Position numbers and translations under genes: made by a program. Source: Rhodocyclaceae bacterium (GTDB lineage: Bacteria > Pseudomonadota > Gammaproteobacteria > Burkholderiales > Rhodocyclaceae). From it: 32,000 nucleotides of DNA. Each line of letters starts with the position of its first letter. Positions within the stretch are counted from its first letter, which is position 1. Below the pieces are notes generated by a model. The model did not search any database, was not told the origin of the DNA, and was given only the letters and a program-made list of their open reading frames with translations. Of the stretch, positions 1 through 9,305 are shown one piece after another. The stretch spans positions 48,565 to 80,564 of the forward strand of contig JADJAS010000007.1 in assembly GCA_016704145.1 (NCBI GenBank), read 5' to 3'.

Positions 1-446
1 AAGCGGCCGGCATCGCCAAGGCGCTGGCCGCAATGCTAACGGCGTCCAGCCGATCGGTTGCTTGCCGGCAATTCGACATCGATGGCGGCGATGCTCGATC
101 GGTCACCCGTGCCCTGACGGCCCCGGCCTGTTCGAAATGGCTGGCAATCCTGCCACCGGCGGGAGCCGTGGTCGTGACCGAATTGGCCCGCGACCTCAGA
201 CTTGGTCTTCGCTGGTCCGGACGCCATCGCGTCGATGCGAGCGGAATCCGGCACCATGGCTCGATCGCCGGCCTCGACGAACCGCTCGACTGGCGAACGG
301 ACAACCGGAACTGGGAGAGTCGGCTCGCCTCGCTTTACTTCGACATCCTGACTGGCGTCACGCCCACGATCGACGCCGGAAGTAGTCCGCGCGCGAGGAC
401 CGACCAAGCCGCCGTGGAACTCGCCTGCCTCCTTCTGACGAAGTAA
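1..446 (+). CDS. hypothetical protein, C-terminal fragment (5' end lies upstream of the window)
   Basis: Frame 3 is open from the window edge to TAA at 444-446. Third codon positions are mostly G/C, as in neighbouring genes. Same strand as the PchF-like gene and 40 nt upstream of it. No motif recognised. No CXXCH, so it is not a cytochrome c subunit. Confidence 0.3.
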   Translation, partial: AAGIAKALAAMLTASSRSVACRQFDIDGGDARSVTRALTAPACSKWLAILPPAGAVVVTELARDLRLGLRWSGRHRVDASGIRHHGSIAGLDEPLDWRTDNRNWESRLASLYFDILTGVTPTIDAGSSPRARTDQAAVELACLLLTK

Positions 447-486
447 GTCCGGCGCGCCACTGAACGAAACGAAGGAGACAACCGCA

Positions 487-2034
487 ATGGCAGCAATACG
501 CAAGGTACTGCCGAAGGGCATCAGCGCCGGCACGTTCGCAACGGCCCTCAGGGAAATCGCGAACATCATCGGTACGGACAACGTCATCGTCGATGACGAA
601 AAGATCGTGCCGTACGAAAAGATCATGATGCCGGTGCCGGATCATCAGCATGCTCCGTCCGCCGTCATTACCCCGGGCAGCGTTGACGAAATTCAACGGA
701 TCATGAAGGTGCTCAACCGACACCGGATTCCCGTGTATCCGATCTCGACGGGAAAGAACATCGGTTATGGTTCGGCGGCGCCCGTGCAGCGCGGTCAGGT
801 GGTCATGGACTTGCGACGGATGAACCGCATCCTTGACGTCGATCCCGAACTATGCACCGCCTTGGTCGAGCCTGGCGTAACTTACCAGCAACTCTACGAC
901 TACCTTCAGGAAAAGAAGCTGCCCCTCTGGTTCTCCTGCCCTGCGCCATCGGCGATCGCCGGTCCGCTGGGCAACATGGTCGATCGAGGCATCGGGTACA
1001 CACCCTATGGCGAGCACTTTCTGTTCTCGTGCGGCATGGAGGTCGTGCTGGCCAGCGGCGAGGTACTTCGCACGGGCATGGGCGCCATGGCCAAATCGAA
1101 CACCTGGCAAGTCTTCAAGTGGGGCTATGGGCCTACGCTGGACGGTATCTTCACCCAGTCGAACTATGGCATCGTGACCAAGATGGGCATGTGGCTGATG
1201 CCTGCGCCGCCCGATTTCCGTCCATTCTGCATCCAGTACCCGAATGAGACCGACATCGTCAAGATCGTCGAGGCGCTTCGGCCACTGCGAGTCGCCATGG
1301 TCATTCCTAACGCCGTCGTTATTGCCCACACGCTATGGGAAGCGCCATGCACACCAGTCAAACGTTCCGACTATCACCGCGGCCCTGGTGCCATCAGCGA
1401 CGCGGCCGTGAAAAAAATCCAGGAAGATCACGGCATCGGGGCCTGGAACGTCTATGCCGGCCTTTACGGCACCAAGGAAACCAATGATGCCAACTGGAAA
1501 ATCATCGAAGCGGTGGCGGCGGCCAGCGGGGGCAAGATCATCACGCAGGACCAGTCGCGAGGCAGTGAGGCCCTCCAATACCGCTTCGACCTCATGAAAG
1601 GCAAGCCCAATCTCGGCGAATTCGGACTCTACAACTGGCGTGGCGGTGGCGGCTCCATCTGGTTCGCGCCGGTCTCGCAGGCCAAGGGTGCCGAGACGCT
1701 GAAACAAATGAAAATGGCCAAGAACATTCTCGGCAAGTACGGATTTGACTATGTCGGCGAGTTCGTCGTCGGCTGGCGGGACATGCATCACGTCATCGAC
1801 CTGCTGTACGACCGCAGCGATCCGGAGCAAACCAAGCAGGCCTATTCCTGCTACGAGGAACTGCTGCACACCTTCGCCGCTGAAGGGTATGGGGTATATC
1901 GCGCCAGTACCGCTTTTGCCGAAAAAGTCGCCTCGACCTATGGTCCGATCAAGCGCGACGTGGAGAAAAGGCTCAAGAAGGCACTCGACCCCAACAACAT
2001 CATCGCCCCGGGACGTTGCGGCATCAGCCTATAG
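487..2034 (+). CDS. pchF: p-cresol methylhydroxylase / vanillyl-alcohol oxidase family flavoprotein subunit (PchF-like), paralog 1
   Basis: 515-aa ORF with SD GAAGGAGA upstream of ATG 487. N-terminal FAD-binding domain signature (PISTGKNIGYGSAAP). GLYNWRGGGGS contains Tyr382, and the C-terminal GVYR contains Tyr471/Arg472. These sit 2 residues off the FAD-linking Tyr384 and phenolate-binding Tyr473/Arg474 that I recall for Pseudomonas putida PchF. Confidence 0.85.
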   Translation: MAAIRKVLPKGISAGTFATALREIANIIGTDNVIVDDEKIVPYEKIMMPVPDHQHAPSAVITPGSVDEIQRIMKVLNRHRIPVYPISTGKNIGYGSAAPVQRGQVVMDLRRMNRILDVDPELCTALVEPGVTYQQLYDYLQEKKLPLWFSCPAPSAIAGPLGNMVDRGIGYTPYGEHFLFSCGMEVVLASGEVLRTGMGAMAKSNTWQVFKWGYGPTLDGIFTQSNYGIVTKMGMWLMPAPPDFRPFCIQYPNETDIVKIVEALRPLRVAMVIPNAVVIAHTLWEAPCTPVKRSDYHRGPGAISDAAVKKIQEDHGIGAWNVYAGLYGTKETNDANWKIIEAVAAASGGKIITQDQSRGSEALQYRFDLMKGKPNLGEFGLYNWRGGGGSIWFAPVSQAKGAETLKQMKMAKNILGKYGFDYVGEFVVGWRDMHHVIDLLYDRSDPEQTKQAYSCYEELLHTFAAEGYGVYRASTAFAEKVASTYGPIKRDVEKRLKKALDPNNIIAPGRCGISL

Positions 2035-2048
2035 AAGAAGGAGACAAC

Positions 2049-3491
2049 ATGAAGGAATACAAACTGTTCATCGATGGGGAATGGGTGCCCTCCTCGACGG
2101 GCACCGTGCTCGATGACATCAATCCCGCCACGGGCGAGGTCTATGCCCGCATCCACCAGGCTTCCGACCAGGACATGGAACGCGCCATCGTCGCCGCGTA
2201 TCGGGCGCGCGAAGCCTGGGGCAACACGCTCGCCAACCAGCGCGAAACCATCATCCTGAAGGCCGCGGATATCCTGGAGCAGAGAATTCCCGAAGTGGCG
2301 GATGTCCTGATGGATGAAGCCGGCTCCGTGTTCGGCAAGGCCATGTTCGAAGCTTCGTTCGTCGTCAACCTACTGCGCAGTGCCGCCGGCGAATGCCGGC
2401 GCATCGTCGGCGAGACAATGCCCTCGGACAGCCCCGGCGTGTTCTCGATGAGCGTGCGCCGACCGCTGGGCGTCATCGCCGGCATCGCCCCTTTTAATTT
2501 CCCGTTCCTGCTGGCCACCAAGAAAGTCGCCCTGGCGCTTGCCGCTGGCAATACCTTCGTCCTGAAGCCGGCCACTTACACACCCGTCACCGGCCTGAAG
2601 ATCGCGGAAATCTTCGAAGCGGCCGGATTACCCAAGGGCGTGTTGAACGTCGTGCCGGTACAAGGTTCCGTGCTCGGCAACCGCTTTGTCGCCGACCCAC
2701 GCGTCCGGATGATCACGTTCACCGGTTCGACCGAGATCGGCAAGCAATTGGCCGCCGACGCCGGCAAGTATCTGAAGCGCATCACCCTCGAACTGGGCGG
2801 CAAGAGCCCGCTGATCGTGCTGCGCGACGCCGATCTCGACTATGCCGTGCGGGCTGCCGCCTTCGGGATATTCCTTCATCAGGGCCAGGTATGCATGGCC
2901 AACTCGCGCCTGATCGTCGAAGCGCCGATCTTCGATGCGTTCTGCGCCAAGCTCGTCGCCAAGGTCGGTGGCTACCAAGTGGGCGACCCGCATGACCCAC
3001 ATTCCGTCATCGGCCCGCTGATCGACCGCAAACAATGCGGCGTGCTCGACCGCCACGTGCAGGATGCCGTCGCCAAGGGCGCGCGCCTACTGACGGGCGG
3101 CAAGAACAACGGTGCCTTCTATCAACCCACCATCCTCGCCGACGTCACGCCCGAGATGGCGGTCTTCCGCGAGGAAACCTTCGGCCCCGCCGTCTCCGTG
3201 ATACGCGCCGAAAACAGCGACCACGCCCTGGCGCTGGCCAACGACTCCTGTTACGGCCTTTCGGCGGCCGTCATTACCAACGACCTCCAGAAAGCCTTCG
3301 ATCTATCGCTGCGTCTCGAATCGGGCATGGTGCACGTCAACGACTGCACGCTGCTCGACGAACCCCATGTGCCTTTCGGCGGTGTCAAGGACAGCGGCTT
3401 CGGGCGCGAGGGCGGCCATCATTCGATGGACGAGATGACCGAATTGAAGTGGATCACCGTGCAGCTCGGGCAACGCCAGTTCCCCTTCTGA
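2049..3491 (+). CDS. NAD(P)+-dependent aldehyde dehydrogenase, by context 4-hydroxybenzaldehyde dehydrogenase (PchA-like)
   Basis: ALDH motifs are present: FTGSTEIG, ELGGKSP (catalytic Glu) and FLHQGQVCMANSR (catalytic Cys). SD AAGGAGA lies 6 nt before ATG 2049 (MKEYKLFIDGEWV), which I prefer over the track start at 2016. Confidence 0.9.
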   Translation: MKEYKLFIDGEWVPSSTGTVLDDINPATGEVYARIHQASDQDMERAIVAAYRAREAWGNTLANQRETIILKAADILEQRIPEVADVLMDEAGSVFGKAMFEASFVVNLLRSAAGECRRIVGETMPSDSPGVFSMSVRRPLGVIAGIAPFNFPFLLATKKVALALAAGNTFVLKPATYTPVTGLKIAEIFEAAGLPKGVLNVVPVQGSVLGNRFVADPRVRMITFTGSTEIGKQLAADAGKYLKRITLELGGKSPLIVLRDADLDYAVRAAAFGIFLHQGQVCMANSRLIVEAPIFDAFCAKLVAKVGGYQVGDPHDPHSVIGPLIDRKQCGVLDRHVQDAVAKGARLLTGGKNNGAFYQPTILADVTPEMAVFREETFGPAVSVIRAENSDHALALANDSCYGLSAAVITNDLQKAFDLSLRLESGMVHVNDCTLLDEPHVPFGGVKDSGFGREGGHHSMDEMTELKWITVQLGQRQFPF

Positions 3492-5083
3492 TGCCGGAAT
3501 CGAGGTCACCGTCACCGCCCGTCGAGGACCTCGCGGACGCAATCAACGCCGTCGACGAGATCCTGGGCCCGCCGCTGGCGTCGGGTTGCGCAAGTCGTGC
3601 CGCGCTGCGCTGGGGCGCCGATCAATCGCTTAGCTTCGACGAACTGAACACACTGGTGAATCGTTATGGCCAGGCCCTGCGCAACGAAGGAGTGAAAGCC
3701 GGACAGCGTGTCTTCTTCCTACTCGACGATTCTCCCGAACTGGTGGCGGCGTATCTGGGCGCGATGCGGGTTGGTGGCATTGCCGTCGCGCTCAACATGC
3801 GGTTGGCGGCGAAGGATCTGTTGTTCATTCTCGACGATGCGTCGCCGGCGGTGCTGTTTATTCATGTCGATCTGCTCTCTCTCTACCGTGAGATCGAGGC
3901 GGCACTGACGACGCCGCCGCGCCTGGTGGTACTGGGGCGAGCCATCGCCGCCGACGATGATCTGGCCGCATTCCTCGCTGGCGCGGGTGACGTCTTGACA
4001 TCGATGCCCCGATCGCCGACCGATCCCGCCTATTGGGTCTATTCGTCCGGCACCACCGGCCGGCCGAAGGCCGCCATCCATCGCCATGGCGACATGCGGG
4101 TGGCCGATCTGCATCTGCGGATCAATCTCGGCGTCCAGCCGGGCGACCGGGTATTCACCACCTCGAAGATGTTCTTCGCTTTTGCGCTCGGCCATTCGCT
4201 GTTCGGCGCCCTGCGCTGCGGCGCGACGGTCGTCATTCATGCCGGCTGGCCGGACGCCGCGGCCATTGGCGAGGCAGTACGCCGCGAACGGCCGACGGTG
4301 ATGCTGAGCGTGCCGACGATGTACCGCAACCTCCTGCACGAGGGCGTCGCGACCGATCCCGCCTTCCGTGGCGTGCGCCACTACGTTTCGGCCGGCGAGA
4401 AACTCCCGGAAGCCGTGTTCGAGGCATGGGTCGACGCGACCGGCGTGCCCATCCTGGAAGGCTACGGCACTTCGGAAACGGTATTCCTGGCGATCGCCAA
4501 CACGCCGCGCAGCTACCGTGTCGGCAGCAGCGGCCGCCCCTTGCCGTGGGCCGAAGCCCGTCTGACCGACGAAAGCGGCGCGGCGATCAACATGCCGAAC
4601 ACGCCGGGACGGCTGGCGCTGCGGATGGGCTCGGTGTTCGCCGGTTACTGGCGCCAGCCAGACCTGAGCCGGGAATTCCTTCATGACGACTGGTATTTTC
4701 CCGGCGACATGTTCAGCTTCGACGAGTCCGGCTGGTGGTACCACCATGGCCGCGCCGACGACATGTTGAAGATCTCCGGACAGTGGGTCAGTCCGAGCGA
4801 GATCGAGGACTGCGCGCTCACGGTCGAGGAGTTGGCCGAAGTCGCCGTGATCGGCCACGCCAATGCCGATGGCCTGATCCGCCTGGCCATGTTCGCCGTT
4901 CCGCGTTCGCCGATACGGGACGAAGCGGCGCTCGCCCGGAAAGTGGGCGACAAGTTGCACGCCACCCTGTCGATCTACAAGTGTCCACGAACCATCCGGT
5001 TCATTACCGAACTTCCTCGCACGTCAACCGGCAAGGTACAAAAGTTCAAGCTGCGCGGACTGTTGGAGATCGCCACTTCCTGA
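3491..5083 (+). CDS. AMP-forming aromatic acid-CoA ligase (benzoate / 4-hydroxybenzoate-CoA ligase family)
   Basis: Adenylate-forming motifs: WVYSSGTTGRPKA, GYGTSET, YHHGRADDMLKISGQWVSP and C-terminal PRTSTGKVQKFKLR. ATG 3491 overlaps the ALDH stop (TGATG). The track ORF start at 3035 is an Arg-rich out-of-frame overlap with the ALDH gene. Confidence 0.85.
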   Translation: MPESRSPSPPVEDLADAINAVDEILGPPLASGCASRAALRWGADQSLSFDELNTLVNRYGQALRNEGVKAGQRVFFLLDDSPELVAAYLGAMRVGGIAVALNMRLAAKDLLFILDDASPAVLFIHVDLLSLYREIEAALTTPPRLVVLGRAIAADDDLAAFLAGAGDVLTSMPRSPTDPAYWVYSSGTTGRPKAAIHRHGDMRVADLHLRINLGVQPGDRVFTTSKMFFAFALGHSLFGALRCGATVVIHAGWPDAAAIGEAVRRERPTVMLSVPTMYRNLLHEGVATDPAFRGVRHYVSAGEKLPEAVFEAWVDATGVPILEGYGTSETVFLAIANTPRSYRVGSSGRPLPWAEARLTDESGAAINMPNTPGRLALRMGSVFAGYWRQPDLSREFLHDDWYFPGDMFSFDESGWWYHHGRADDMLKISGQWVSPSEIEDCALTVEELAEVAVIGHANADGLIRLAMFAVPRSPIRDEAALARKVGDKLHATLSIYKCPRTIRFITELPRTSTGKVQKFKLRGLLEIATS

Positions 5084-5102
5084 GCGATATGGGGCATTCA
5101 CG

Positions 5103-6647
5103 ATGAGCAAGTATGTCGCGTTACCCAAGGGCGTTGACGAAGCCACTTTTGACCGAGCGATCGCCGAATTCAGAAACATCGTCGGCGCCGAGCATGTATT
5201 GCACTCGGCCGAGGCACTGGGGCCGTTCCTCAAGATCATGATCCCGGCACCGATCGAGGCCCACGCACCATCGGCGGCGATCGCCCCCGCGAGCGTCGAG
5301 GAAGTACAGCGCATCCTCGCGGTCTGCAACCGCTACAAGACCCCTGTGTGGCCCGTCTCCACCGGCAAGAATTTCGGCTATGGCTCGGCCGCGCCAGCCA
5401 CGCGAGGACAGATCATCCTTGACCTCAAGCGGATGAACCGGATCATCGAAGTCGATCCCGATCTTTGCACTGCCTTGGTCGAACCTGGCGTCACCTATCA
5501 GCAACTGTACGACTACATCAAGGAACGCAATCTGCCGCTGTGGATCGACCCGCCGATACCCGGGCCGGTGGCGGGACCACTCGGCAATACAGTCGAACGC
5601 GGGGTTGGCTACACACCCTACGGCGAGCATTTCCTGTTCTCCTGCGGCATGGAAGTGGTTTTAGCCGATGGCCAGGTGCTGCGCACCGGCATGGGCGCCA
5701 TGCCCAACTCCAATACCTGGCAGGTGTTCAAGTGGGGTTATGGACCGACGCTGGATGGCATCTTTACCCAATCGAGCTTCGGCATCGTCACCAAGCTCGG
5801 CCTGTGGTTGATGCCCGCGCCGCCGGCCTACAAGCCATTCGTGGTCCGTTACCCCGAGCACGCCGACATCGCCAAGGCCATCGACACCATCCGGCCGCTA
5901 CGAATCGCCCAGATCATTCCCAATGCCGGCACGGTTTCCAACGCCTTGTGGGAGCTAGCGGTGATCAACCGCCGCGCCGACCTGTACCCGCAGGCGGAGC
6001 CGATTCCCGATACAACGGTACTCGACCTCGCCAAGAAACACGGTGTCGGCGCATGGAACGTCTATACCGCTCTTTATGGCACCGAGGAAACCATCGCCGC
6101 CCACTGGAAAATCGTGACGGCCGCCTTCAAGGCCTCCGGCGGCACCGTGCTCACCCAGGAGGACGTCGGCCCAGACGATCCACTGTTCAACTATCGTCGC
6201 GACGTGATGCGCGGCGACCTGACGATGCGGGAGTTCGGCCTCTACAACTGGCGCGGCGGCGGTGGCTCGATGTGGTTCTCGCCCGTCTCGCAGGCCCGCG
6301 GCAGCGAGACGCTGAAGCAGATGGGACTGGCCAGGCGCGTGCTGGACAAGTTCGGCATCGACTACGTCGGGCTATTCGTCATCGGCTGGCGCGACATGCA
6401 CCACATCATCGACATCCTCTACGACCGCGGCCAGCCGGAAGCAATGGCCAAGGCACGCCGGTGCTACGACGAACTGCTCGACGATTTCGCGCGGGAAGGC
6501 TATGGCGTCTATCGGACCAACATCGACTTCATGGCGAAAGTCGCCAAGCTCTACGGGCCCGTCAAGGCCAAAGTGAATCGCCGCATCAAGCGGGCGCTTG
6601 ACCCTAATGGCATACTGGCGCCAGGCAAGTCCGGCATCCACGGCTGA
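5103..6647 (+). CDS. pchF: p-cresol methylhydroxylase family flavoprotein subunit (PchF-like), paralog 2
   Basis: 514-aa ORF collinear with the 487-2034 product over its full length. By eye roughly 60 percent of residues are identical, with long shared blocks such as DPxLCTALVEPGVTYQQLYDY and YTPYGEHFLFSCGMEVVLA. It keeps FGLYNWRGGGGS and GVYR. Confidence 0.85.
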   Translation: MSKYVALPKGVDEATFDRAIAEFRNIVGAEHVLHSAEALGPFLKIMIPAPIEAHAPSAAIAPASVEEVQRILAVCNRYKTPVWPVSTGKNFGYGSAAPATRGQIILDLKRMNRIIEVDPDLCTALVEPGVTYQQLYDYIKERNLPLWIDPPIPGPVAGPLGNTVERGVGYTPYGEHFLFSCGMEVVLADGQVLRTGMGAMPNSNTWQVFKWGYGPTLDGIFTQSSFGIVTKLGLWLMPAPPAYKPFVVRYPEHADIAKAIDTIRPLRIAQIIPNAGTVSNALWELAVINRRADLYPQAEPIPDTTVLDLAKKHGVGAWNVYTALYGTEETIAAHWKIVTAAFKASGGTVLTQEDVGPDDPLFNYRRDVMRGDLTMREFGLYNWRGGGGSMWFSPVSQARGSETLKQMGLARRVLDKFGIDYVGLFVIGWRDMHHIIDILYDRGQPEAMAKARRCYDELLDDFAREGYGVYRTNIDFMAKVAKLYGPVKAKVNRRIKRALDPNGILAPGKSGIHG

Positions 6648-6715
6648 GGGGCCGAGCCTCGCCCCGGCGGCGACCAAAGTCAGCCTTGGCGGCACGCCGC
6701 CCGAGCCTGTTTGGT

Positions 6716-7492
6716 CTACGGATGCAGCAACGCATAACCGCCGGCGTCGATCACCAAGCAAGTCAGCATCCCGCTGGCATGGGCACCGGTATCGATGCCG
6801 ATCCGGTTGTGGCGAAACTGCGGTCGGGCATCGATGCTATGGCCGTGCACGATCACGGCGCCAAAGTCCTCGTCGCTGGCCAGAAATGCTTGCCTGACCC
6901 AAAGCTGATCGTGCCGGGCCTGCAACGCCAGCGGCACCCCCGGCGCCACGCCGGCATGGACAAAATGATAGCCACCCTCGGCGTGATTGATCGCCAGATC
7001 GGCCAGAAACTGCCGATGAGCCAACGGCAAGGCGCTCCGAAAATCCCGGCGCAGCGAATCCACCGACTCATCGCTGCCGGTAAATCGACCCGCGATATCT
7101 ACCCCGTAGCTCGCAAGCGTCGCCAGGCCACCGCCATGCTCGAACCATTGGCGCCCTCCCGCCAGGTCACCCTCGATGAAGCGAAGCGCCAGGTCTTCGT
7201 GGTTTCCGCGCAGCAGCCTGATCTCCAGACCGGCGGGCCGCCATTGCCGCAGATTTTCGACGACACCGAAAGCATCCGGTCCCCGGCTCAAGTAGTCGCC
7301 GAGAAAGATCACCACCCGGCGCCGGCGGCCGTGCCCTGCGGCATCCTCGACAATGGCACGCTCCATGGATTCGAGAAGATCGCGACGGCCATGAAGATCG
7401 CCGATCGCGTACACGCGCACGCCCGGCGGCAGCAGGCCCGCCGGCGCAGGCGTGGCGCCACAAACGGCGGGCGACAGCCAAGTGAGCGCCAA
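6716..7492 (-). CDS. metallophosphoesterase (PrpA/ApaH-like Ser/Thr phosphatase or diadenosine tetraphosphatase family)
   Basis: Calcineurin-like phosphoesterase motifs in order: IGDLHG, GDYLSRGPD, RGNHE, FVHAG, VHGH. The track start at 7492 is TTG, 6 nt after the upstream stop. An internal GTG (VRVYAIGDLHG) is an alternative start, so the 5' end is uncertain. Confidence 0.75.
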   Translation of the reverse strand: MALTWLSPAVCGATPAPAGLLPPGVRVYAIGDLHGRRDLLESMERAIVEDAAGHGRRRRVVIFLGDYLSRGPDAFGVVENLRQWRPAGLEIRLLRGNHEDLALRFIEGDLAGGRQWFEHGGGLATLASYGVDIAGRFTGSDESVDSLRRDFRSALPLAHRQFLADLAINHAEGGYHFVHAGVAPGVPLALQARHDQLWVRQAFLASDEDFGAVIVHGHSIDARPQFRHNRIGIDTGAHASGMLTCLVIDAGGYALLHP

Positions 7493-7498
7493 GCCGGC

Positions 7499-8806
7499 CT
7501 AGGCCATATCGTCGTCACGCCGGACGAAGAAGCGCTTGGCCTTCATTTCGAACCTGGGCAGCGCATTGCGGGCCACCAGATGTACCCGCGGCCGGAACGC
7601 CAACAAGGTATCGAGCTTGTCGGCAATGGCATGCACGACATCGGGATGCGCCCCCTCGCAAAGCTCGATCTCGACATCCATCTCGTCCATCTGCCTTTCC
7701 TTGTGCACCGTGACGCGAAACTCGTCGACCTCGGTGAACTTGCGCAGGATGTTTTCCACGCCCGCCGGGAAGACATTGACGCCACGCACGGTGACCATGT
7801 CGTCAGCGCGGCCGAGAATGCCGCCGGCGAAACGCAGGAAGCTTCTGCCGCACGCGCACGGACGCGAATCGATCCTGACCACGTCGCCCGTCTTGTAGCG
7901 AATCACCGGAAAGCCCCAGCGCCCGAGGTTGGTGATCACCATCTCGCCGCGCTCGCCCTCGCCTACCGGCGCGCCGGTCTCGGGGTCGAGCACTTCGACG
8001 ATGTATTCCGACTCGATCAGGTGCGTGCCGCCGGGCTGCTCCGAGCATTCGAACGAATGGGCGCCGACCTCGGAAGCGCCGGCGTGGTCGAAACAGTGGG
8101 CCGACCACGACTCCTCGATGCGCCGCTTGGTCGCCGGAACATTGGCACCCGGCTCACCGGCATGAATGGTCGCCCGCATCGGAATCCTGCCGAGATCGAA
8201 GCCGATCTCGCGACCGACTTCGGCCAGACGCAGCGCATAGGTCGGCGTGCAGCAGAGGGTGGTGGCGCCGGCCTCCTTCATGAGTTCCAGGCGCTGTTGC
8301 GAATCGCGACCGCCACCGGGAATCATCACCGCGCCGATCTTGCGAGCGCCTTCGACGGCCGCCCAGAAGCCGATGAAGGGACCGAAGGCGAAGGCCAGGA
8401 ACACCCGATCGGACGCCGTCACACCGGCCCCGGCCAACACGTGCCCCCAGCAACGCCCCCACCAGTCCCAGGAAGCATCGGTATCGAAAACCTTGAGTGG
8501 CACGCCAGTGGTTCCCGAGGTCTGGTGCATGCGCACATAAGCATCCAGCGGGTAGGTCAAATTGGTGCCGAACGGCGCTTCGGCGGCCTGGTCATCCATC
8601 AACTCGCTCTTGCGGGTCAGCGGCAGATGGCGCAGATCGTCCAATGTCTTGATATCGCCTGGCTCGATACCGGCCTCCTGCCACTTTCGGGTGTAGAAAC
8701 GGTTGCGCCTCCAAAGCTCATGGCTCATGGCACGCAGCTTGGCCACTTGAAGTTCGGCGAGCCTGTCGCGCGGCATGGTCTCGGTGGCTTGATCGAAGAA
8801 TGGCAT
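7499..8806 (-). CDS. phenylacetate-CoA ligase-like (PaaK / F390 synthetase family) adenylating enzyme
   Basis: 435 aa from ATG 8806 (MPFFDQATETMPRDRLAELQVAKLR), which has the typical PaaK-family N-terminus and size. HQTSGTTGVPLKV is the AMP-binding motif. The track extension to 8872 would overlap the upstream gene. Confidence 0.8.
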   Translation of the reverse strand: MPFFDQATETMPRDRLAELQVAKLRAMSHELWRRNRFYTRKWQEAGIEPGDIKTLDDLRHLPLTRKSELMDDQAAEAPFGTNLTYPLDAYVRMHQTSGTTGVPLKVFDTDASWDWWGRCWGHVLAGAGVTASDRVFLAFAFGPFIGFWAAVEGARKIGAVMIPGGGRDSQQRLELMKEAGATTLCCTPTYALRLAEVGREIGFDLGRIPMRATIHAGEPGANVPATKRRIEESWSAHCFDHAGASEVGAHSFECSEQPGGTHLIESEYIVEVLDPETGAPVGEGERGEMVITNLGRWGFPVIRYKTGDVVRIDSRPCACGRSFLRFAGGILGRADDMVTVRGVNVFPAGVENILRKFTEVDEFRVTVHKERQMDEMDVEIELCEGAHPDVVHAIADKLDTLLAFRPRVHLVARNALPRFEMKAKRFFVRRDDDMA

Positions 8807-8843
8807 GATGGTCGTGTTCCCGGTGTCGATGAATGGAAATGGT

Positions 8844-9305
8844 TCAGGCAATCGCGGCGCGCATCTCCGCATAAACCGCCTGCTCCATGCGCAGCATCGC
8901 TTCCCGTTGTTCGGCCGGCCATTCGTACATCAGTGCCGTTGTCTTGACGCCTCGCCAGCTTTGGTCGCGGGCGCCCATGACCTCCATCTCCCACAGCATG
9001 ATGACGTTGGGCGCGGCCGCCTCGATGCGCGACTTGACTTGCCGAGCCCTGCCCTTGATCAGAAAGCTGACATCGTCGGGACCGATGACCTGCAATGACA
9101 CCAGGCCGGTGCGTTGTGCATTGGCCATCGCCGAACCGCCATCGTCGACACCGAAGCGCACGCACTTGTCGTCCAGGGCCACTACCCAGGTGTAGGCGGA
9201 GGTCGCATAGCCATCCGCGCCGGCCGTGAGCAACAAGGCCGGCGCGCCGGGACGCAGGTAGCCAAGCAGCCTGGCGGGAAGATTGGGGGTCACGCTACCG
9301 ATCAT
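8844..9305 (-). CDS. small PNPOx-like / flavin-reductase-like split-barrel protein (tentative), function unknown
   Basis: 153-aa ORF with SD AAAGGAA before ATG 9305. The pattern LLLTAGADGYATSAY...VRFGV...NAQRTGLVSLQVIGPDDVSFLIKGRARQV resembles FMN-binding split-barrel proteins. The assignment rests on pattern recognition only. Confidence 0.45.
   Translation of the reverse strand: MIGSVTPNLPARLLGYLRPGAPALLLTAGADGYATSAYTWVVALDDKCVRFGVDDGGSAMANAQRTGLVSLQVIGPDDVSFLIKGRARQVKSRIEAAAPNVIMLWEMEVMGARDQSWRGVKTTALMYEWPAEQREAMLRMEQAVYAEMRAAIA

Follow-up and report, generated by a model that had tools for sequence, protein, structure and literature searches.

A p-cresol operon of a Rhodocyclaceae bacterium encodes two divergent PchF-type flavoproteins and a single cytochrome

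A 32,000-nucleotide (nt) stretch of contig JADJAS010000007.1 from a Rhodocyclaceae bacterium (assembly GCA_016704145.1; hereafter the window) raises the question of why one locus should encode two relatives of PchF, the flavoprotein subunit of p-cresol methylhydroxylase (PCMH), and apparently no cytochrome for either. The initial annotation of the window described two full-length but diverged pchF-like genes, pchF1 and pchF2 (products F1 and F2), separated by genes for an aldehyde dehydrogenase and a coenzyme A (CoA) ligase. It found no ORF with a CXXCH motif between or beside them and offered three explanations: a heteromeric enzyme of the Geobacter type, two enzymes with different alkylphenol specificities, or a different electron acceptor. 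The window was reanalyzed by listing of open reading frames (ORFs) and domain scans, and DNA upstream of window base 1 was added. The two paralogs are as described (515 and 514 amino acids, 60% identical), and domain scans identified the genes between them as proposed.

A scan of all stop-to-stop frames agreed that the window itself holds no credible CXXCH ORF; three motif matches sit in PpcA or in antisense or alternative frames. The idea of a PCMH lacking its cytochrome gene was nevertheless not borne out. A pchC-like gene immediately upstream had been named as a finding that would speak against it, and such a gene is present: pchC, which encodes 105 amino acids with a CRYCH motif, ends 140 nt before window base 1. 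Its product has a sole PDB match, PchC of PCMH (1DII_C; E 3e-18), and would be the Sec-exported c-type cytochrome subunit. The fragment at positions 1–446, in which the annotation had seen no such motif, is the 3′ part of a longer gene, pchX. Because pchC was found immediately upstream, the missing cytochrome is an artifact of the window edge. The operon contains the dedicated small c-type cytochrome gene typical of PCMH, in one copy for two flavoproteins, and over the whole genome (100% complete, 7 contigs) the count is two for pchF and one each for pchC and pchX. A cresol hydroxylase without a cytochrome does not exist here, which matters to annotators of the locus, and the question shifts to how two flavoproteins relate to one cytochrome.

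The explanation that we favor, with moderate confidence, is that F1 and F2 are two flavocytochrome-type dehydrogenases with differing preferences that would use a common PchC and a common PchX, all encoded in one sigma54-dependent operon. F1 with PchC would convert p-cresol via 4-hydroxybenzyl alcohol to 4-hydroxybenzaldehyde; the aldehyde dehydrogenase and then the ligase would yield 4-hydroxybenzoate and its CoA ester, joining the neighboring phenol route. F2 would likewise be functional, as a second dehydrogenase for 4-alkylphenols or 4-hydroxybenzyl alcohol with the same PchC as its acceptor. PchX, the only carrier of a twin-arginine translocation (Tat) signal, would most likely escort the folded, signal-less F1 into the periplasm, and F2 would be exported by the same route. 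Of this scheme, gene content and order, the presence of pchC and pchX, residue conservation, the separation of the clades, purifying selection, and the 2:1 ratio of pchF to pchC are observed; joint use of PchC and PchX, a division of labor between the two flavoproteins, and escort by PchX are inferred.

The gene order is sigma54 promoter, pchC, pchX, pchF1, aldehyde dehydrogenase, CoA ligase, and pchF2 (Table 1), and the genes are tightly spaced: 8 nt separate pchC from pchX, 40 nt pchX from pchF1, 14 nt pchF1 from the aldehyde dehydrogenase gene, and 19 nt the ligase gene from pchF2. The ATG of the aldehyde dehydrogenase gene follows an AAGGAG ribosome-binding site, and the ligase gene overlaps the aldehyde dehydrogenase gene by 1 nt, its start lying inside the stop of the latter (TGATG). 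Counts of internal sigma70 promoters and terminators in positions 1–7600 equaled the shuffled expectation, giving no support to a separate pchF2 transcript. The box ahead of pchC is a perfect match to TGGCAC-N5-TTGC. With one mismatch allowed, a match occurs in a third of shuffled sequences, and the box taken alone is weak evidence; it does agree with the nature of the adjoining regulator genes. Directly 5′ of pchC (L007:15772-19277) lie genes for a sensor histidine kinase (XylR_N/V4R-PAS) and a sigma54-dependent response regulator, likely a p-cresol-sensing two-component pair. Inside the window lies the distal portion of what is one sigma54-dependent operon for p-cresol oxidation, of a known kind and of the anaerobic type. 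The aldehyde dehydrogenase is 86% identical to the protein encoded next after PchF in Azoarcus sp. Aa7 and is likely a 4-hydroxybenzaldehyde dehydrogenase in the role of PchA. The best model match of the ligase is 3-hydroxybenzoate-CoA ligase (HbdA), at 726 bits against a cut-off of 1000 bits; the enzyme is likely a 4-hydroxybenzoate-CoA ligase. The PCMH reaction runs via a quinone methide and hence requires a para-hydroxyl group. An m-cresol route, suggested by the HbdA-like ligase, was rejected on this ground and because the ligase falls under the HbdA cut-off. As to the regulators, the same kinase-regulator pair precedes pchC in a metagenome-assembled genome (MAG) of the same gene order (L014), and weaker homologs (32–40% identity) lie 5′ of pchC in the Sulfuritalea-type loci and several other Rhodocyclales loci.

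F1 aligns with PchF of Pseudomonas putida (PDB 1DII_A) over its full length (residues 6–515; 744 bits). Both paralogs had been credited with the candidate flavin adenine dinucleotide (FAD)-linking Tyr (GLYNWRGGGGS) and the Tyr-Arg phenolate residues, and the alignments to 1DII_A confirm this. As read from the printed alignments, F1 and F2 keep Tyr384, Glu380, Tyr95, and Tyr473/Arg474 (1DII numbering); the FAD-linking residue is Y382 in F1 and Y381 in F2, and the phenolate residues are Y94 and Y471/R472 in F1 and Y93 and Y470/R471 in F2. F1 also keeps the Ala154-Pro155 pair at flavin N5 and Glu427, and its clade agrees with the majority of 72 sequences at these positions. It is 84% identical to the sole PchF of Azoarcus sp. 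Aa7, and its ratio of nonsynonymous to synonymous substitution rates (dN/dS) is 0.07–0.11 at dS of 0.3–1.1. Judged by its sequence, F1 is the canonical PCMH flavoprotein subunit, with every hallmark of PCMH kept.

F2 also aligns best with 1DII_A (693 bits, residues 5–512), ahead of nsVAO (623 bits) and VAD (493 bits). Its dN/dS of 0.06–0.10 (dS 0.3–1.1) indicates purifying selection on a par with that on F1, so F2 is unlikely to be a decaying or purely structural copy. Clade-specific sites were defined as alignment columns in which the other 72 sequences show at least 90% conservation and the F2 clade has a replacement. The replacements, in 1DII numbering, are S151D, A154I/M, S156G/A, A157P, I158V, I261A, V262I, V279T, I280V, A281S, L378M, E427L, and V430I; a sister clade described below mostly shares them. 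Ala154 and Pro155 are the two PCMH residues that contact flavin N5 (PMC7617285, Table 1), and Pro155 is regarded as a dehydrogenase signature (PMC7617285). In F2, Pro155 is retained, the N5 pair reads Ile-Pro, and position 427 is Leu, which places F2 outside PCMH in the strict sense of Ala154-Pro155 plus Glu427. Ile154 and Leu427 are invariant in the seven-member F2 clade, and the sister clade has Met and Leu there. In a stereo-inversion study of VAO (D170/T457E), Glu427 reportedly supplies the carboxylate across the active site of PCMH and is implicated in quinone-methide hydration. PCMH position 427 aligns with VAO Thr457; the two numberings differ by 30 there, as they do at Y473/R474 (VAO Y503/R504) and at D434 (VAO E464) (PMC5646868). 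Because Ala154 and Glu427 are replaced, F2 appears to be a PCMH-like 4-phenol dehydrogenase of a separate subfamily and not PCMH proper.

F2 was also compared with two relatives, VAD (the vanillyl-alcohol dehydrogenase of Marinicaulis flavus, 8S7N-8S7W) and nsVAO (Novosphingobium, 9FFK; PMC7617285). The F2 loop LWIDPPIPGP resembles LWIDVPTVGP of nsVAO and LWIDVPDPGW of VAD (a shared "LWID.P..GP" loop), unlike MLSFSAPSA of PCMH; the eugenol-hydroxylase (EUGH) and VAD clades likewise have an N5 loop like that of the F2 clade. None of VAD, nsVAO, and F2 has Glu at PCMH position 427, where VAD has Leu as in F2, and VAD and F2 share Pro at the second N5-contact position. F2 differs from VAD in having Ile in place of Asp150, and it would link FAD through the PCMH-type Tyr384, whereas VAD does so via His and the flavin of nsVAO is unlinked; overall, F2 is closest to PCMH. 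The altered N5 loop and the missing Glu427 predict a substrate or reaction preference different from that of F1. VAD is inactive on p-cresol and active on 4-hydroxybenzyl and vanillyl alcohol (PMC7617285). Because the operon partners of F2 process 4-hydroxybenzaldehyde and 4-hydroxybenzoate, 4-hydroxybenzyl-type alcohols or related 4-substituted phenols are the simplest guess for its substrates. F2 is most likely a functional, Tyr-linked 4-phenol dehydrogenase of a separate, uncharacterized subfamily.

The resemblance to nsVAO bears on the proposal that F2 bypasses PchC and passes electrons to another cytochrome, a cupredoxin, or a quinone, or works in the cytoplasm. The genome has no second pchC, family members without a dedicated cytochrome exist, nsVAO among them (PMC7617285), and nsVAO scores higher against F2 than against F1 (623 vs. 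565 bits). In PCMH, however, the Tyr384 loop adjoins the cytochrome (PMC5646868), and the F2 loop around the FAD-linking Tyr (EFGLYNWRGGGGSMWF) is identical to that of P. putida PchF and differs in nsVAO and VAD. F2 also keeps the dehydrogenase-signature Pro155, its sister clade has adjacent pchC genes, and pchF2 is predicted to be co-transcribed with pchC and pchX. With the Tyr384 loop unchanged and the sister clade carrying its own pchC, a different acceptor is the least supported of the three options first proposed, and we regard it as very improbable.

To place the paralogs among their relatives, species-representative genomes were scanned with F2, and the loci of the best 80 relatives (at least 62% identical) were mapped with the window proteins. 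Two MAGs, L014 and L009, have the same gene order, with F1 at 93–95% identity (partial in L009) and F2 at 93–94%. Four Sulfuritalea-type MAGs (L010–L013) have kinase, regulator, pchC, pchX, F2 (86%), and F1 (84%), with the two flavoprotein genes in tandem, and Azoarcus sp. Aa7 (L083) lacks F2 and has pchC, pchX, F1 (84%), and an aldehyde dehydrogenase gene (86%). The F1/F2 pair is thus kept in all seven loci that have an F2 ortholog, in the orders C-X-F1-ald-lig-F2 and C-X-F2-F1. Counted over whole genomes, pchF and pchC stand at 2:1 in one Sulfuritalea MAG and one Rhodocyclaceae MAG and at 1:1 in Azoarcus sp. Aa7; in one gammaproteobacterial MAG, two close pchF genes are matched by two pchC genes. 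A PchF-like gene was found in 9 and an F2 ortholog in 0 of a sample of 150 genomes of the same family, and the sole genome of the same genus (91% complete) had no PchF-like gene. The p-cresol module is accessory and patchy. Among the mapped relatives, pchC-pchX-pchF units 62–66% identical are widespread in nitrifiers (Nitrosomonas, Nitrosospira, Nitrospira, and Nitrotoga; many loci within L036–L087). None of these genera is known for degrading cresol.

A maximum-likelihood tree of 89 PchF sequences (quick search, with the Shimodaira-Hasegawa-like approximate likelihood-ratio test, SH-aLRT, as the only support) put F1 and F2 in deeply separated clades, so they are not the product of a recent tandem duplication. 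At 100% support, F1 clusters with the Azoarcus sp. Aa7 protein and the second of the two flavoproteins in the Sulfuritalea loci, and F2 only with its six orthologs (also 100%). The F2 clade joins a gammaproteobacterial sister clade encoded in ordinary pchC-pchX-pchF units (86% SH-aLRT). Paralogous PchF enzymes that differ in alkylphenol role have a precedent in Aromatoleum aromaticum EbN1, where a pchF lies in the p-ethylphenol cluster (PMC4630880). The deep separation of the clades, together with the changes in F2 at otherwise conserved active-site positions, makes two enzymes with different alkylphenol specificities the option of the three that fits best, as far as sequence can tell.

Patchy distribution (PchF in 9/150 family genomes) would also fit transfer, and F2 could then be a transferred isoenzyme with the same p-cresol chemistry as F1. 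PCMH is the best solved-structure match for both proteins, and the remaining enzymes of their operon act on 4-hydroxybenzaldehyde and 4-hydroxybenzoate. Such simple redundancy nonetheless seems improbable to us: the pair has survived about 15% protein divergence and a rearrangement of the operon, and the F2-specific replacements are not random but cluster in the flavin-N5 loop and the Glu427 strand.

A heteromer is the stronger of the competing proposals and still an unlikely one. F1, F2, and PchC would then form one alpha-alpha′-beta2 flavocytochrome in which F2 is possibly a flavin-poor or regulatory isoform. Johannes et al. (2008; cited in 10.1101/2025.09.08.674859 and 10.64898/2026.01.30.702948) are said to have described a PCMH of Geobacter metallireducens (PcmG/PcmI/PcmJ) that is alpha-alpha′-beta2, with two flavoprotein isoforms, one of them without FAD. 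The Geobacter cluster and this operon are alike in having two PchF-type genes and one cytochrome c gene and in their setting in an anaerobic p-cresol degrader. One pchC per two pchF genes was found in three genomes, and F2-clade genes always lie in the operon of F1, directly in tandem in the Sulfuritalea MAGs, an arrangement nearer that of Geobacter. Here, however, two other genes separate pchF1 and pchF2, and in the stretch examined no bc1-like membrane-anchor genes (pcmCDEF type) adjoin them. Compared with Geobacter (by description only), the paralogs come from separate deep clades, each of which, itself or through its sister, is found as the sole flavoprotein of a pchC-pchX-pchF unit. Both are also catalytically complete by sequence, and F2, which keeps all cofactor and phenolate residues and is as constrained as F1, fits an inactive alpha′ poorly. 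What makes the heteromer less likely is the distance between the two clades together with the complete catalytic residue set of F2.

Several points nevertheless count against two separate enzymes of differing preference. The sequences do not distinguish two homodimers sharing PchC from a heterodimer, and no locus examined has a member of the F2 clade without F1, a pattern that would suit an obligate partner just as well. The node joining F2 to its sister clade has only 86% SH-aLRT, and the catalytic role assigned to Glu427 is the one reportedly implied by the VAO stereo-inversion study. The gene neighborhoods of the F2-sister loci (L027) and of a Sulfuritalea locus (L011) gave no hint of a substrate.

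Whichever way the subunits assemble, both flavoproteins would have to reach the compartment of the cytochrome. PCMH is periplasmic though PchF has no signal peptide, according to Hopper 1985 as cited in 10.1101/2025.09.08.674859, and neither F1 nor F2 has an N-terminal signal. The N terminus of PchX, MNRRIFLINGASAAVGISLPGWA, is a twin-arginine signal. By position, the gene corresponds to pchX in the P. putida locus pchA-pchC-pchX-pchF and to the gene labeled "hypothetical protein" in the Thauera sp. MZ1T operon (bioRxiv 10.64898/2026.01.30.702948). An RR-x-[FLIV] motif heads 68 of the 72 ORFs in the pchC-pchF gap of related loci, and at least two of the four exceptions, L014 and L083, reflect a wrongly chosen frame, the motif being present in the right one. 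In an alignment of 56 PchX sequences, at 15–25% identity, only Arg3, Arg4, His120, and His129 are invariant. PchX matched no Pfam family and gave no Foldseek match at E ≤ 0.001. Its AlphaFold2 model (predicted local distance difference test score 78.5) is a single Rossmann-like alpha/beta domain that VIA-align matched to generic periplasmic-binding-protein or LacI-type lobes at the background level (Z 8–9); the structural neighbors being generic only, no specific fold was assigned. A literature search for pchX, or for PCMH with twin-arginine or hitchhiker export, found no relevant paper.

Three sequence features of hitchhiker export are seen, namely a Tat signal on PchX, cargo without a signal, and conserved adjacency, and PchX is a good candidate for a Tat hitchhiker escort of the PchF proteins. 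The nearest analogy is the gamma subunit of Burkholderia FAD-glucose dehydrogenase (PMC6719666), like PchX a small protein that carries the only Tat signal, with a signal-less FAD dehydrogenase and a Sec-exported cytochrome c encoded alongside, as at the pch locus. PchX has no sequence or specific fold similarity to that subunit and is absent from purified PCMH, so an escort role would be transient. In two gammaproteobacterial MAGs (L021:3769-9527 and L040:1154-4532), a pchC-pchF pair with a 24-nt gap and no pchX lies beside a pchC-pchX-pchF unit; there too, a single pchX appears to serve two flavoproteins.

The locus shares the pchC-pchX-pchF core order with the pchA-pchC-pchX-pchF locus of P. 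putida NCIMB 9866/9869 (PDB 1DII, 1WVE) and has an aldehyde dehydrogenase gene in the operon, as does the cytochrome c/hypothetical/FAD oxidase/aldehyde dehydrogenase operon of Thauera sp. MZ1T (10.64898/2026.01.30.702948). Compared with both, it adds a CoA ligase and a second divergent flavoprotein gene, is under sigma54 two-component regulation, and stands in an anaerobic context beside phenylphosphate synthase and carboxylase genes. The PCMH operon is thus known, and the modest new twist is a flavoprotein of a second subfamily that would use the shared cytochrome and export helper, conserved in a small Rhodocyclales lineage. A denitrifying or facultative lineage of this order would thereby keep two structurally distinct PchF-type enzymes served by a single cytochrome and a single export helper. 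Such a lineage offers a natural setting for studying the diversification of 4-phenol dehydrogenases, whether in their substrates or in the type of reaction. It can tell whether the heteromer of Geobacter stands alone or reflects a more general design, and it may reveal the periplasmic route of signal-less flavoproteins. The F2 subfamily could also widen the set of enzymes for oxygen-independent biocatalysis of lignin-derived phenols. More tentatively, F2 and its sister clade might constitute a cytochrome-c-dependent subfamily of 4-phenol dehydrogenases with Tyr-linked FAD, no Glu427, and an N5 loop like that of EUGH and VAD, in which F2 divides labor with PCMH on shared PchC and PchX. If so, F2 could take 4-hydroxybenzyl alcohol, or methoxylated or longer-chain 4-substituted phenols.

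The suggestion that the cresol and phenol routes converge on 4-hydroxybenzoate and its CoA ester is supported by the genes found. The alpha, beta, and delta subunits of the neighboring phenylphosphate carboxylase score above their curated cut-offs, UbiX is present, and the genome also holds a gene for the alpha subunit of 4-hydroxybenzoyl-CoA reductase, again scoring above the cut-off.

Table 1. Positions of the pch operon genes, their presumed promoter, and the ORFs next to pchF2 (window numbering; negative values lie upstream of base 1)
Feature	Position	Strand	Remarks
sigma54 -24/-12 box	-511..-497 (L001:504-518)		TGGCACGCCACTTGC; ~40 nt ahead of pchC start
pchC	-457..-140 (L007:19542-19859)	+	105 aa; signal peptide; CRYCH; Cytochrome_CBB3
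pchX	-132..446 (L001:882-1460)	+	192 aa; twin-arginine signal; 3′ part = window 1..446
pchF1 (F1)	487..2034	+	515 aa; FAD_binding_4 + FAD-oxidase_C
Aldehyde dehydrogenase	2049..3491	+	Aldedh domain, 556 bits
Aromatic-acid CoA ligase	3491..5083	+	AMP-binding domains; NF053567 (HbdA) 726 bits
pchF2 (F2)	5103..6647	+	514 aa; FAD_binding_4 + FAD-oxidase_C
753-aa ORF	6686..8947	+	almost certainly an artifact
Metallophosphoesterase	6716..7492		antisense to the 753-aa ORF
PaaK-like	7499..8872		antisense to the 753-aa ORF

Only 68 nt (window 6648–6715) separate the end of pchF2 from that of the convergent phenol operon, and this gap contains a GC-rich inverted repeat (GGGGCCGAG/CCTCGCCCC) that may be a bidirectional terminator, although the consensus scan did not call it. 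The 753-amino-acid ORF that begins in the gap was set aside as almost certainly a high-GC artifact; it has no family match and is antisense to genes of known type. Farther upstream, 5′ of the regulator genes (L007:8721-15373), lie a NifS/NifU-like pair, a two-subunit 2-oxoacid:ferredoxin oxidoreductase, and a rubrerythrin, genes that may supply low-potential electrons for anaerobic aromatic metabolism.

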